A DNA stretch of 64,000 nt, from assembly GCA_965226495.1 (NCBI GenBank), contig OZ245365.1, positions 4,608,001 to 4,672,000 of the forward strand. Reading direction: 5' to 3'. The position numbers and the translations under genes are program-made. The notes below the pieces were generated by a model that saw only the letters and a list, made by a program, of their open reading frames with translations, searched no databases and was not told the DNA's origin. Numbering within the stretch: position 1 is the first letter of the stretch; every line of letters starts with the position of its first letter. This DNA comes from Candidatus Marinacidobacterales bacterium (GTDB taxonomy: Bacteria > Acidobacteriota > Vicinamibacteria > Marinacidobacterales > DATDRI01). Below, piece by piece: positions 59,237-64,000 of this stretch.

Positions 59237-62095
59237 TCACTTTGTCGGAACCAGACGTTCGAGCTCCTCGAACCAGTTGAGAATGATGACGAGCTCGGTG
59301 CGTTCCGACTGGCGTCCACCAACCGGCTTCGCCATGACAAACCGGCCGTCGGGTCCCACATCGTAGGTCGGAGCAGCGGCGCCGTCTGGTGAATACGGCA
59401 GCTCGAACAACGTTTCGGGCGGCTCGAACCGGAAATCCGGATCGGTGGTAACCCGGACTGCCATCATCGTGTGATCCTCTATGTAATAGAGCTCCCGATC
59501 TCCCGGCCCCCAAACCGGCTCCACTCCACCGTTGGTCGAAACCCGCATCGGTGCACCTGAGCCGGGATACGGCCGCACTAGAACCTCGAAACGCCCCGTC
59601 AAGTCCGATATAGACGCATGCCAACGACCGTCTGACGAAAGCGCGCTCATCCCCTCAAGATCCTCTGTTTGAACCACGACACGAGGTTCCCGATCGCCCT
59701 TGAGCGAAATCGCCATAATATCGTTTTGCTCTTCGAAGAGGAGCTCCTCGGTCCGGTGGGACCATGCTCGAAGAAACTTTGGGTGTGGACTCTTGAGGAG
59801 TAGCTCCGGCTCGGAGCTGCTCCCGTCAGAGGGGATAGAGAAAAGGTCCAAGCCGCCGGCTCGCGTTGAAGCAAACGCGATGCTGCTGCCACCCTGCACC
59901 CAAACGGGAAGGAGGTCACGTCCACCGGTTGTCAGACGCGTCGGAGGACGATTATCCAGATAGTAGACCCAGAGGTCTCCAAACCCCGGGTTGAATCCAG
60001 TCATCAAAGCCAACCGGCGCCCATCGGGTGATAGTCGGATGTTCCTCGGATTCTCGAGCGGTCCTTCAACCAACGGCTGGTGCTCTCTTCCGTGACGATC
60101 GACCCACAGCAAGGTCGCGAGGCTGGTGCTTCTAGGGAGATACGCCAGCGAGCCGTCGCGCGACAGACTGACGCTCCCGAGACCCCACCGGGGATTGGCC
60201 CTTATCCCCTCCAGCACCGGAGCGGAAGGGCCTGTCGTTTCTAGGTCTTCAAGATCGAACGGCGCCGCCATGAGAACTCCCTGCTGCATATAGAGCAAGT
60301 GACCGGACGGCGCGTAGCGGGGGAAGTAACCACCTTCGAGCACGGTGTGGTATTCGCCAGACTTCAGTGAAAGGGCCGCGATACGGCTTGGTACGAGCGA
60401 CGACGTGCCCTGTATCGAGAAAAGGACGGCCTTGCCGTGGGGGAGCACATCTGGCCACCAGTGGCCCCCCTCCTCATTCGCAGCGTCGGGTGTTGTAAGA
60501 ACCTCGGGCGTACCGCCGCTTTCGGGCACACGGAAAAGACCAATCTGATTCTCTTCGTTAAGGGCAGCAAAGATAATGGTATTGTCGGTGCTCCAGGATG
60601 CCCCCCAAAGGCGTCGTTTCTGGCACAAGGTCGTCACCGGGCCACCGCGGACAGAGACCGTCTTCAGTGCGTTTTTCTGTGGGCCTAGATTTTCGAAAAA
60701 CCCAATCCACTCGCCGTCGGGCGAGAAGAACGGGTCAACAGCGTTCTCCGTTCCTGGCAGCGGCGTGACATCGAGTTCGTCGAGCGAGCGAACGTAGAGC
60801 AACCGTTCATCGGCACTCCCCCCAGCGTACGCGAGCCGCGATCCATCCGGAGAGAACGCGAGAGTTCCGGGGTTGCCCAGCATACCGGCAAACGGTGCTT
60901 CGGCAGGCAAGGTGATCGACAATCGACGAGTTGGCTCGGACGGACCCGGCCCCACTAGCGCCCAAACGGCGAGTCCTGCTAGCAATGTGCCGATGATTCC
61001 AATCGCAATCCATTGCCCGGGCCTCGAGTGTGCTTTTGCAGCCGGCAGCTCAGTCGCGCCTTGCCCGGCGATCCATTTCAACTCCTGCATGACATCGGAC
61101 GCAGCTTGCCAGCGTTGGTCCGGTTCCTTGGCCAAGCACCGTCGGATCACGTGATCCAGCAGGGGCGGTGCAGTAGGTATGGAAGGAGGCTCGTCTTTGA
61201 GAATCGCTCCAATCAGACTCGCCTGACTCTCTCCTTCGAAGGCTCGTCGCCCAGTCACCATTTCGTAGAGCACCGCACCGAAGGCGAAGATGTCGGTCCG
61301 CGCGTCGGCTTTCTTGCCCTCGACCTGTTCGGGAGCCATGTACTGCAACGTGCCGACAATCGCCCCTTCTCGTGTCATTTTCGTCGCAGTGGCCGCGTCA
61401 GGATCGAGCTTCGAAGGTTCAGGCATCAGCTTCGCCAAACCAAAATCCAGAAGCTTCGCACCCGACTTCGTCAGCATGATGTTGCCGGGCTTGAGGTCAC
61501 GATGCACGACGCCGTGACGGTGCGCCTTGTCGAGCGCGTCCGCGATCTCGATTCCATGTTGCATAGCCTGATCGAGTGGTAGCGCTCCCTTCTCTAATCG
61601 CGCGGCCAACGTCTCCCCTTCGATGTACTCCATCACTAAGAAATCGACACCGTTTTCTTGGCCAACGTCGAAGAGCGTGCAAATGTGGGGGTGGTTCAGT
61701 TGAGAGATCGTGCGGGCCTCGCGCTCGAAACGTTCTCGGGCCTGACGGTTTCCGGCAACATGAGCCGGGAGAACTTTGATGGCAACGGTGCGATCGAGTC
61801 GCGTATCGGTGGCTTGGTAGACCTCACCCATCCCGCCCGCACCAATCAGGCGAACGAGCTTGTAATGACCAAGCTCCGTTCCGGGCGCTAGCTCCATGCT
61901 ATTTACCGCCGGTCCGCGGCCGAGAAAACCGTTCGCTTCTGCTTCGTCATGATTGGCCAGTAGCTCTTCGACCCGCTTGCGCAGCGCATCTTGTCCTGAG
62001 CACGCTTCGTCCAAAAATGCCGGTCGCTCGTTGGGGGCGAGCCTGAGCGCGGCTTCGAAGAGCTCTGCGACGCGCTCCCAAGAGTCCGGCTTCAA
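59237..62095 (-). CDS. Ser/Thr protein kinase with TolB-like beta-propeller
   Basis: GAGGMG, HRDLKPGN, DFG, APE; repeated FSPDG. Confidence 0.95.
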   Translation of the reverse strand: MKPDSWERVAELFEAALRLAPNERPAFLDEACSGQDALRKRVEELLANHDEAEANGFLGRGPAVNSMELAPGTELGHYKLVRLIGAGGMGEVYQATDTRLDRTVAIKVLPAHVAGNRQARERFEREARTISQLNHPHICTLFDVGQENGVDFLVMEYIEGETLAARLEKGALPLDQAMQHGIEIADALDKAHRHGVVHRDLKPGNIMLTKSGAKLLDFGLAKLMPEPSKLDPDAATATKMTREGAIVGTLQYMAPEQVEGKKADARTDIFAFGAVLYEMVTGRRAFEGESQASLIGAILKDEPPSIPTAPPLLDHVIRRCLAKEPDQRWQAASDVMQELKWIAGQGATELPAAKAHSRPGQWIAIGIIGTLLAGLAVWALVGPGPSEPTRRLSITLPAEAPFAGMLGNPGTLAFSPDGSRLAYAGGSADERLLYVRSLDELDVTPLPGTENAVDPFFSPDGEWIGFFENLGPQKNALKTVSVRGGPVTTLCQKRRLWGASWSTDNTIIFAALNEENQIGLFRVPESGGTPEVLTTPDAANEEGGHWWPDVLPHGKAVLFSIQGTSSLVPSRIAALSLKSGEYHTVLEGGYFPRYAPSGHLLYMQQGVLMAAPFDLEDLETTGPSAPVLEGIRANPRWGLGSVSLSRDGSLAYLPRSTSLATLLWVDRHGREHQPLVEGPLENPRNIRLSPDGRRLALMTGFNPGFGDLWVYYLDNRPPTRLTTGGRDLLPVWVQGGSSIAFASTRAGGLDLFSIPSDGSSSEPELLLKSPHPKFLRAWSHRTEELLFEEQNDIMAISLKGDREPRVVVQTEDLEGMSALSSDGRWHASISDLTGRFEVLVRPYPGSGAPMRVSTNGGVEPVWGPGDRELYYIEDHTMMAVRVTTDPDFRFEPPETLFELPYSPDGAAAPTYDVGPDGRFVMAKPVGGRQSERTELVIILNWFEELERLVPTK

Positions 62096-62110: not shown

Positions 62111-62220
62111 CCCTCACCCTACCCTCTCCCAAAGGGAGAGGGTATAAAGGAAGGAAGCCAACGTGCCCCCTCACCCTACCCTCTCCCCAGAGGGGAGAGG
62201 GTTTCAAGGAAGGAAGCCAA
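62111..62220. repeat. Doublet of REP-like hairpins (family C)
   Basis: Two units, each followed by AAGGAAGGAAGCCA. Confidence 0.88.
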
Positions 62221-62325
62221 CCAACTTGTGGTGAAAATAGCTGTATACCAGGCGAAAAGTCAATGGAGGGCAGTAAGGAGGAAAACCTTGTCCGGACGAG
62301 ATTTTTTGTTACCTTTCGATACGCT

Positions 62326-63999
62326 TTACTCTTCCGACGCCAAGGCCAGAAGCCGTGCCCTGGTTTCGGCAGACCAGCCCGAGTGGGCTTCCAGAACGCG
62401 ACCCTCCTCGTCGACGAGAAGAGTCAAAGGCACGGTGAGCTGCGGCGAAGCGTAGATCTTCTCGATGTCCTTCTCATCGAGTAGGACGTTCTTATAGCGG
62501 ATCGAGCGCTCTTCGAGGTAGGAGAGAGCGGCATCCCGCTGCCCGAAATCCAAGCTGATACCGATTAGATCGACGCCGGCGGCGGCGAGTTTGTCTTGAA
62601 GCCGCGACAGCTCGGGCATTTCGACGGAGCACGGGACACACCAAGTCGCCCAAAAGTTAACGACGGTCTTTCGCCCCGGCTTCAAGAGCGAACCCAGCGT
62701 GCCCGAGGACCCCGAGGACGAGGACGGTAACGTTACCACCGACAGATCCGGGAGCGGCTCGCCCTTTCGAAAGGCGAGACTGTGGAATAGTTGTTCCGAC
62801 GCCGGCTCGGGGTCGGGCAAGCTTCGGAGGCGCTCGGAAACCATCTCGACCGTCCCGGCGCCTTCCACCAGCCGTAGGCTTTGACCGGCACGGACATCGG
62901 GGTACGTCTCCACCAAACCGGAAGGCCACGTCACCGTCAGCTCGTAGCTTTCATGCTGGCCCGAGCGGGGGCCGAGCCCGAAGACGAGCCGGGGGTCGCC
63001 TGCAGAAACGAATCCGCTACCCCCGGACTTGATCTTGGTTTGAGTTCCTAGTGGCGTCCGCAGGCGGACCACGGTCCCGAAAGCATCTCGAGCCGACTGC
63101 GTCCCCTCGAGACTCACTCGTATAAAGCCGTTTTCTTGGCCCACGTTGTTCCGATAAAGACGCCGGCCCTCGTTTTGAACCGGCACCACCACCACATCCA
63201 GATCCCCGTCGTTATCGAGATCGGCGAACGAGCAGCCGCGACCATCCCCAATGGAGTCCAGGCCCGAAACACCGGAGATCTCGAGATAGGTCCCGTCCCC
63301 TCGGCTCAAGTACAAACCGTCGCGCTCGAAGCCGCTGAATGACAGACCTTTTTCGAAGATCTCGGTCATGTGGTGGTTCTGGTAATCGGTATTCCCCGGC
63401 TGCTCGACTTTAGCCGCGGACGCCACCACGTGGCGCCAAAAGAGGCTTCAGGTGTCTTTCATGGTCTTGCCAGACACGAAGCCGTTGACGGAGAAGACGT
63501 CTTCCCAGCCATCGTTGTCCAAATCGAAAAAGCCGCCGCCATATGCCCAACCGGCGCCGAAGCCTCCGGCACGCTGCGCGACGTTCTTGAACGTACCGTC
63601 ACCCTGGTTCTCGAAAAGAGAGTTGCCGGCGGCGAGTTTCTTGAGAACCACTCCATCTGGGGTGGCGTCGGGCATGAGCCTTTTCAGAATCCGATTGCCC
63701 GCCGTCGAGGACATGTTCGTTACGTGGAGGTCCAAATCTCCATCGTTGTCATAGTCCCCGAAGGAGACACCCATGCCGTTTCCCGGATCGACGACACCCC
63801 TTTGCACCGCCTCGTCGCGGAAGTGGTCACCGTAGTTCACGAAGAGCGCGTTTTCGCCGAAGTCATTGCTCACGTACAAATCCTGGCGACCGTCCGCGCT
63901 CACGTCGGCGAATGCCGCGGCGTAGCCCCAACGCGAATCATCGACCCCCCATTTCGTTCCCTCTTCCCGGAAACGGCCGTTTCCCTGATTGATAAAGAG
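62326..63999 (-). CDS. CRTAC1/FG-GAP + ASPIC-UnbV + TlpA-like thioredoxin protein with an in-frame TGA (candidate Sec); 5' end outside the window
   Basis: DxDNDGDLD repeats on both sides of TGA 63450-63448 in one frame; FGLG and V.WPSG; NFWATWCVPC. Confidence 0.85.
63412..63447 (-). promoter_or_regulatory. Candidate bacterial SECIS element
   Basis: UGA-AGCC-UCUUUU-GGCGCCAC-GUG-GUGGCGUC-CGC-GGCU; apical loop starts with GU, 18 nt after the UGA. Confidence 0.65.
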
Positions 64000-64000
64000 A

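Follow-up and report, generated by a model that had tools for sequence, protein, structure and literature searches.

A predicted selenoprotein family that combines a CRTAC1-like propeller with a TlpA-like domain

We analyzed a stretch of 64,000 nucleotides from a Candidatus Marinacidobacterales bacterium (contig OZ245365.1, positions 4,608,001 to 4,672,000), which we call the window. Near the end of the window, on the minus strand, lies a gene for a CRTAC1-like propeller protein whose reading frame is interrupted by a TGA codon (63448-63450). We predict that this TGA is a true selenocysteine (Sec) codon and that the protein is a selenoprotein; from comparative evidence, we put the probability of this at roughly 85-90%. 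We also propose that the protein represents a new and widespread family of selenoproteins, in which a CRTAC1-like propeller is joined to a TlpA-like domain. The family is widespread in soil and water bacteria. Below, G000 is the source genome, a single contig of 6.34 Mb in which the window is G000:C1:4608001-4672000; L numbers are genome loci and P numbers are homologs from protein databases.

The window contains the 3' 1,675 nt (62326-64000) of a coding sequence of 2,826 nt, which has 941 codons with Sec as residue 568. The start codon (ATG) is 1,151 nt past the end of the window, the stop codon is TAA (62326-62328), and the whole coding sequence is at G000:C1:4670326-4673151. An earlier interpretation of this DNA, made from its letters without database searches (the sequence-only reading), had claimed that two open reading frames are in one frame and are split only by the TGA. 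We confirmed this: the open reading frames at 63448-63999 (open at its 5' end, at the end of the window, and first listed as 63448-63903) and at 62326-63429 form one minus-strand frame, and the TGA is its sole interruption. The read-through peptide is ...NGFVSGKTMKDT-U-SLFWRHVVASAAK..., with ...GKTMKDT-U-SLFWRHVVAS... at its core.

The central claim of the sequence-only reading was that Sec is inserted at this TGA, and our results agree with it: the TGA column is shared by all of the TGA-bearing loci that we fetched, the adjacent hairpin has the published features of a bacterial selenocysteine insertion sequence (bSECIS), the machinery for Sec insertion is complete in the genome, and the letters are the same in four sequencing runs. 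We looked at 41 related genomes and found orthologs at 73-100% identity in 13 of them, each with a single TGA. Across the phylum, we used an even sample of 401 genomes: 117 have a match at E ≤ 1e-25, and at least 61 (including G000) have at least one match with one TGA. (The figure of 61 is counted among 150 of the matches; another 23 matches lie outside these.) We fetched 90 loci that were flagged for an in-frame stop, and in tblastn alignments at 31-100% identity, the stop was at query column 184 in 90/90 and was TGA in 90/90. As these loci were selected by their stop, this result shows that they share the column and that none has TAA or TAG instead. Both the TGA and the hairpin are kept in homologs, as had been suggested as a check. 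One of the 90 loci (L132), and one of the 60 TGA-form genomes discussed below, is from an unpublished genome (G089); another unpublished genome (G192) provides one of the non-Sec representatives with CxxC (L206), and two more (G007 and G064) appear in hit tables only. No conclusion depends on these four genomes.

The TGA form extends beyond this phylum. When we scanned one genome per species with the upstream open reading frame from the window as the query, we found 80 loci, 17 with TGA at the site. By the titles of their records, the TGA-bearing loci are from Acidobacteriota, Vicinamibacteria, Candidatus Latescibacterota (L212 and L214), Planctomycetota (L230), Myxococcales (L239), and Akkermansiaceae (L240). 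Across at least 10 subfamilies, the contexts of the putative Sec include DT-U-SLFWRHVVA, DL-U-SFFWRQVVS, DS-U-STFWRAVAR, DT-U-VLFWNSVV, DT-U-PTLWRSVV, DY-U-TFFWRQVVAD, and DG-U-RCVWQVAV. G000 itself contains two paralogs (G000:C1:2542561-2543565 and 3214451-3215446; 38-40% identity), each with one TGA at the same column. Their read-through frames have 1,266 and 1,061 residues, each with a hairpin of its own, and end in a domain with WCAPC (plus tetratricopeptide (TPR) repeats) or WCTAC. Given the TGA and hairpin in both paralogs, G000 probably encodes three such selenoproteins.

The sequence-only reading had also asked if raw data might show a different codon. Positions 63250-63650 of the window are found in one contig from each of four metagenome runs, from four studies, with no differing letters, although these samples may include the window's own source. 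The identical contigs exclude a sequencing error. In the same four runs (Logan contigs), pieces of other contigs (33-59 nt, with 2-5 mismatches) match only 63414-63472, and across this segment, which contains the TGA and the hairpin, the summed word depth climbs to 170-380 from a level of 3-9. This pile-up suggests that, among relatives in these samples, the TGA and hairpin are the part of the gene that is best conserved at the nucleotide level. There was no RNA run among the sequencing runs that contain this stretch.

The predicted bSECIS-type hairpin is at 63419-63437 on the minus strand and overlies the codons for W-R-H-V-V-A-S. It has an 8-bp stem (GGCGCCAC/GUGGCGUC, with one G.U pair) and a GUG loop (63427-63429). 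The stem begins 10 nt past the UGA, and the spacing from the UGA to the apical loop is 18 nt. According to a 2026 review (PMC13188914), bSECIS elements have a loop of 3-9 nt with a G as its first or second nucleotide, a stem of 4-16 bp, a distance of 16-37 nt between the UGA and the loop, and a minimum free energy of -7.5 kcal/mol or below. The hairpin fits every one of these features: its loop of 3 nt begins with G-U, its stem is 8 bp, its spacing is 18 nt, and its energy is -12.8 kcal/mol.

This hairpin is conserved. With at least 5 consecutive base pairs and a loop that starts at +18 to +30, we found a hairpin in 90 of 91 distinct Sec sequences versus 16 of 27 non-Sec homologs; with at least 6 base pairs, the counts are 78/91 versus 8/27. 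A G is within the first two loop positions in 88 of the 90 Sec-form hairpins. In divergent subfamilies, the hairpins have other letters or registers (GCGUGC-GGUC-GCACGC, GGGCUGU-CGUGAC-ACAGCCC, CAGUGUG-GUGC-CACACUG, and GCGCAC-GGUC-GUGCGC, as well as the stems GCGUCA/UGACGC and GCGGCA/UGCCGC). L240 provides a natural control: this Sec form retains a perfect stem (GCGCAC-GGUC-GUGCGC), while its relatives with Glu at the site either lack any hairpin with at least 5 bp (L241 and L245) or have one of just 5 bp (L242). The sequence-only reading had described a hairpin of two tiers. Its upper stem, with the GUG loop 18 nt from the UGA, is the conserved hairpin described here. Its lower stem (AGCC/GGCU) does exist in the window, but we rejected it as a conserved element: 42.0% of cells in the alignment pair, versus a mean of 42.1% in shuffles, and this pairing is equaled or exceeded in 281 of 500 shuffles.

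The genome encodes all of the expected machinery for Sec insertion (tRNA-Sec, selA, selB, and selD), which the sequence-only reading had listed as something to look for. Aragorn identified a tRNA-Sec at 173953-174050 of G000:C1, with a UCA anticodon, an 8/5 fold (an 8-bp acceptor stem and a 5-bp T stem), and a long variable arm. A second "tRNA-SeC" call, at 176351-176447, is a copy of the 3' half only. Apart from these two, aragorn found no tRNA with a UCA anticodon in G000. The hits to selA (570 bits), selB (378 bits), and selD (333 bits) are each above the cut-off, and selB is 34 kb from the window. selD (G000:C1:5697778-5698710) contains one in-frame TGA, so SelD in this organism is probably a selenoprotein form as well. 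In the phylum sample, 300 of 401 genomes have selA. Of the 60 genomes with TGA forms (other than G000), 56 have selA, and the remaining four (G270, G358, G295, and G121; completeness of 95, 96, 69, and 99%, respectively) have selB above the cut-off.

We noticed several other features near these genes. The 3'-half copy of tRNA-Sec is exact, lies 2.3 kb beyond the gene, and resembles an old integration site. The insert between the two contains genes for a helix-turn-helix/TPR protein and a SnoaL-like protein, and we did not find an integrase. In G061 (C1:1154808-1158321), selA begins directly after the ortholog of the selenoprotein gene, and in G215 (C9:31938-38751), selA is about 4.5 kb after the ortholog.

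As to the protein, it is quite likely that the product is one secreted protein of 941 residues, with a signal peptide, an alpha/beta N-terminal domain, a CRTAC1-type propeller, an UnbV_ASPIC domain, and a TlpA/ResA-like domain. The N-terminus (MSLNVSWVGWGRTHLPTALALVLLVSTLPDEALAQE) looks like a signal peptide by inspection. The Pfam matches to the read-through protein, all above cut-offs, are FG-GAP_3 (six stretches, 131.3 bits), FG-GAP (58.5 bits), UnbV_ASPIC (PF07593; 62875-63084, minus strand; 48.6 bits versus a cut-off of 23.4), Redoxin (49.5 bits), AhpC-TSA (46.1 bits), and Thioredoxin_8. The FG-GAP_3 stretches confirm that these repeats continue on both sides of the TGA, and the Redoxin and AhpC-TSA matches confirm the C-terminal WCVPC redoxin domain; both had been claimed from the sequence. 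By Pfam's gathering scores and by its fold, the protein belongs to the CRTAC1 family (an FG-GAP propeller with UnbV_ASPIC). No NCBIfam model covers the whole protein, and the matches of the TlpA/ResA/DsbE type are sub-threshold only.

We also built an AlphaFold model of 904 residues from an input alignment of 32 rows. Its mean predicted local distance difference test score (pLDDT) is 91.2 and its predicted template modeling score (pTM) is 0.89. The C-terminal blades of the FG-GAP propeller, along with a helical insert that is led by Sec (SLFWRHVVASAA), are encoded by 63085-64000 (minus strand), as judged from Pfam, the model, and the structure 9ETN. In the model, Sec (residue 531 of the model) opens the alpha helix 531-542, right after a loop. 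The sequence-only reading had placed Sec in a loop of the propeller; in the model, it does follow a loop, but it is the first residue of the helix instead of being in the middle of the loop. The TlpA/ResA-like thioredoxin-fold domain is encoded by 62377-62766 (minus strand). Its CVPC active-site motif (62629-62640, minus strand), with Cys826 and Cys829 as residues 801 and 804 of the model, is at the beginning of the model's helix 802-820, and Sec is about 258 residues upstream of this motif.

Among the Sec forms that we examined, none lacks both an intact C-terminal CxxC domain and a local U-x-C. In G000, each of the three paralogs has a thioredoxin fold at its C-terminal end, with the motif WCVPC, WCAPC, or WCTAC. 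The C-terminal CxxC is present in 41/41 group-A orthologs, and among 16 representatives of the Sec subfamilies, 13 contain CxxC in a thioredoxin fold. The remaining three (L168, L170, and L180, from genomes G433, G055, and G094) form a shorter Sec subfamily of 795-847 residues that lacks the thioredoxin domain and has a Cys two residues past the Sec (U-R-C, U-S-C, and U-T-C). (G433 has at least three genes of this shorter subfamily.) Where the thioredoxin domain is missing, the Cys of the U-x-C may be a local resolving residue.

Among the non-Sec forms, CxxC is less common. We searched the homologs for the thioredoxin domain with a local phmmer search, with the window's redoxin domain as the query, which is less sensitive than a Pfam scan. 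By this approach, 4 of 26 non-Sec genome representatives (L190, L194, L205, and L206) have CxxC in the aligned thioredoxin domain, and another 4 of 26 have degenerate motifs (TSLLC, WAPPS, SASC, and SPAC). L198 has a CIAC near its N-terminus, outside of the thioredoxin domain. The remaining non-Sec representatives had no match to the thioredoxin domain in this less sensitive search, and several of these (for example, L184, L188, and L189) appear by eye to contain degenerate thioredoxin-like segments. The four with degenerate motifs (L185, L186, L191, and L192) are proteins of about 1,300 residues that have a thioredoxin-like domain and TPR repeats; in their active site, the first Cys is gone and the second is often retained.

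These patterns bear on the mechanism. On comparative evidence, we predict that SelB and Sec-tRNA(Sec) decode UGA568 as selenocysteine, and that SelB would be recruited by the hairpin, with its apical loop 18 nt downstream, within the W-R-H-V-V-A codons. In the model, the Sec would be at the N-terminal end of a helix that is inserted in the propeller. The N-terminal end of a helix is where the nucleophilic Cys or Sec lies in many redox enzymes, and the helix dipole at this position favors a reactive thiolate or selenolate. The selenol might attack an oxidant or a substrate that is bound to the propeller. The C-terminal WCVPC domain might then re-reduce the Sec through a selenenylsulfide, and a membrane electron carrier of the CcdA/DsbD type might keep the thioredoxin domain reduced. 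G000 does contain a DsbD_TM/CcdA homolog. An intramolecular redox relay had been suggested from the sequence alone, and because the Sec co-occurs with CxxC or U-x-C in every Sec form that we examined, it gains comparative support, although the relay itself is still inferred. We consider it the best-supported mechanism. That the Sec exchanges electrons directly with the thioredoxin domain seems to us an even bet, given the co-occurrence and the modeled position of the Sec. More tentatively, and with slightly less confidence, we suggest that this protein founds a group of exported selenoenzymes that spans several phyla and has yet to be catalogued, in which a Sec at a helix N-cap in a CRTAC1-type propeller co-evolves with a fused reductase or with U-x-C to give a self-recycling extracytoplasmic redox catalyst.

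A number of our results weigh against these proposals. First, consider the residues at the Sec column in non-Sec homologs. Full-length homologs from protein databases have S (7 of them), C (P0007, P0015, P0017, and P0032), R, V, L, A, or D. The first 20 genome homologs have S, E, L, Q, A, G, N, or D, and there is no Cys at this column among them. Later loci add W, Y, and two with Cys (L198 and L201), for six Cys forms in all. So, Cys is at this site in only a minority of the non-Sec homologs, which is unusual for a catalytic Sec. The sequence-only reading had stated that homologs with non-Cys residues here would refute Sec, and many homologs do have such residues (S, N, E, D, G, A, or Q). We do not think that they refute it, because this site caps the N-terminus of a helix and because Cys forms also exist. 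Helix N-caps are usually S, N, D, G, or T, and most of the non-Sec homologs have ordinary cap residues. All forms retain the flanking S-x-F-W-R helix, and the Sec seems to have been gained at a cap position that the structure leaves tolerant.

Second, there are limits to the statistical evidence from the hairpin. The mean folding energy of +10 to +45 is -13.05 for 80 Sec forms versus -10.53 for 20 non-Sec forms (p = 3.5e-4, Mann-Whitney test), but this p value overstates the difference because related sequences are not independent. We aligned 78 distinct sequences without gaps, and 76.8% of cells in the 8-bp helix are paired, versus 71.9% in shuffles; none of 500 shuffles does as well as the real alignment. 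At alignment pair 18-28, CG occurs in 46 sequences, GU in 9, UA in 5, GC in 3, and AU in 2. However, two-sided changes are seen at only three pairs, and 146 of the 500 shuffles have at least as many; also, if the 3' partners are slid by -3, then 71.0% of cells still pair. The formal covariation is modest because the stem overlaps a conserved peptide, WR(H/Q)VV. We believe that the hairpins with different letters at the same place across subfamilies are stronger evidence than the formal covariation. In Rfam, at E ≤ 10, positions 63300-63500 of the window match nothing beyond a lentiviral frameshift element (11.4 bits), which is a chance match.

Third, some non-Sec forms have an intact CxxC (P0003, P0004, and P0005, with V, L, and S at the site, respectively, as well as L190, L194, L205, and L206), so Sec and CxxC are not strictly tied to each other in both directions. 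CxxC is also retained in P0007 and P0032, which are Cys forms. And fourth, the neighboring genes (an MFS transporter, a DAO oxidoreductase, a PP2C, an esterase, a sulfatase, a sigma-54 activator, a Ser/Thr kinase, and an amidohydrolase) offer no clue as to the function.

Of the alternatives, the one that survives best accepts the Sec but not the relay: the selenol might act independently of the thioredoxin domain, by binding a metal or metalloid or as a nucleophile that is recycled externally, and the TlpA-like domain would have a separate job. The non-Sec homologs with intact CxxC imply that Sec is not needed for the thioredoxin domain to work, the domain is missing altogether from three Sec subfamilies, and many different residues occur at the site in non-Sec forms. 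But the CxxC is intact in all 13 Sec representatives that lack U-x-C and in the 41 group-A orthologs, while most non-Sec forms have lost it. We consider this alternative to be unlikely, but it is the one to take seriously.

The other alternatives would require that Sec is not inserted at all, and each of them is very improbable. The UGA might be decoded by another tRNA, that is, by an opal suppressor that inserts Cys, Ser, or Trp. Allo-tRNAs or selC* tRNA(Cys) have been reported in Acidobacteria and other phyla (PMC5389517), and Ser is common at this site in the non-Sec homologs. However, the only tRNAs with a UCA anticodon that aragorn found in G000 are tRNA-Sec and its 3'-half copy, and selA, selB, and selD are present; the hairpin fits the SelB-type SECIS model; and every TGA-form genome that we checked has selA or selB. 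We give similarly little credence to the TGA being a genuine stop, which would yield a truncated propeller, with or without a C-terminal protein that is started separately. Gene callers do split the gene at the TGA in 86 of the 120 best database clusters, and there are GTG codons 18 nt downstream, including the one at 63427-63429, which is the listed start of the second open reading frame. But a stop would sever a blade of the propeller that is continuous in full-length homologs; the codon is TGA in 90/90 loci, never TAA or TAG, with the frame always retained; the GTG falls in the loop of the hairpin; and the read-through protein folds as one confident model (pTM = 0.89). Finally, a sequencing or assembly error or a recent pseudogene would account for the presence of a stop codon and nothing else, and this is hardly credible with identical contigs from four runs and four studies and with a TGA that is conserved down to 31% identity.

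If the TGA does encode Sec, as we predict, then how does this protein compare to known systems? The closest solved structure is murine CRTAC1 (9ETN), which shares the FG-GAP propeller followed by UnbV_ASPIC (profile E-value of 6.3e-50). 9ETN is also the top match in Foldseek (E = 5.5e-28, with a target-normalized TM-score of 0.74 over 607 columns). CRTAC1 lacks both the Sec and the thioredoxin domain, the window's protein has an additional N-terminal domain, and the region of the Sec helix aligns poorly to CRTAC1 (3.1 bits). The C-terminal domain resembles the TlpA/ResA/CcmG reductases in sequence (1JFU, E = 1.1e-12), in having its CxxC at the N-terminus of a helix, and, for ResA and related reductases, in fold (target-normalized TM-score of 0.8). 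It differs from them in being fused to a large propeller. The match to the TlpA equivalog NF047696 is 61.6 bits, versus a cut-off of 230, so the domain is TlpA-like and is not an ortholog of TlpA.

The thioredoxin-fold selenoproteins with Sec in a redox motif are similar in that they have an exported TlpA/ResA-like redox domain, are found in Sec-using bacteria, and have a bSECIS. In the catalogued ones (UxxC, UGC, or WAxxUGC), however, the Sec is inside the motif, while the window's protein has an ordinary WCVPC and its Sec is in the propeller. (The score for NF041054, or WAxxUGC_long, is 36.5 bits versus a cut-off of 300.) In the chemistry of glutathione peroxidases and peroxiredoxins, a nucleophilic Sec or Cys at the N-terminal end of a helix is re-reduced by a thioredoxin-fold partner with CxxC. 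These enzymes are what our protein may work like, although our protein has an unrelated fold and carries its partner fused in cis.

The sequence-only reading had noted that this is not one of the classical families of selenoproteins. This agrees with Table 1 of PMC13188914, which lists 119 families and subfamilies of prokaryotic selenoproteins and has no entry for FG-GAP, ASPIC, UnbV, or CRTAC1. Selenoproteins with FG-GAP/ASPIC/CRTAC/UnbV propellers are also absent from the main texts of this review and of the deep-Sep and BSepDB papers (PMC12013277 and PMC13326102), although the supplementary tables may differ. Literature searches that combined selenoprotein or selenocysteine with FG-GAP, ASPIC, CRTAC1, VCBS, UnbV, or Acidobacteria returned nothing relevant. 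So, the family appears to be missing from the latest list of prokaryotic selenoproteins, and yet it is common and is found in several phyla.

The family is routinely mis-annotated as two truncated genes. The 86 of the 120 best protein-database clusters that are split are N-terminal fragments that end exactly at ...DT, which is at the TGA. Where names are given, they are "FG-GAP-like repeat-containing", "VCBS repeat-containing", or "hypothetical". Because the clusters are cut at the UGA, counts of proteins, domain architectures, and selenoproteins are biased for these bacteria. The setting of the putative Sec is also unusual, as it is outside of a thioredoxin-like fold, in a large exported propeller with a fused reductase domain. 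The bacterial CRTAC1/ASPIC-UnbV family is functionally obscure, and the Sec would give a first concrete and testable biochemical handle on it. The variants with Sec, Cys, or N-cap residues, with the matching loss or retention of CxxC, form a natural experiment on why Sec was recruited.

We made a few other observations about the window and the genome. The gene downstream of the selenoprotein gene (59237-62095, minus strand) encodes a Ser/Thr protein kinase of 952 residues with a C-terminal beta-propeller of the PD40/TolB-like type, and we found no link between it and the selenoprotein. The spacer of 230 nt between the two genes contains a 39-nt element twice (62124-62162 and 62183-62221). The copies are 59 nt apart and 85% alike, and each has an internal palindrome (GGGAGAGGG / CCCTCTCCC); the element looks like a repetitive extragenic palindromic (REP) sequence or a terminator. 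Aragorn also called an odd second transfer-messenger RNA (tmRNA) at G000:C1:408773-409255, with a Cys-rich tag of 24 residues. This is probably a false call. There is also a conventional tmRNA at G000:C1:5341135-5341482, with the tag ADHKLALAA.

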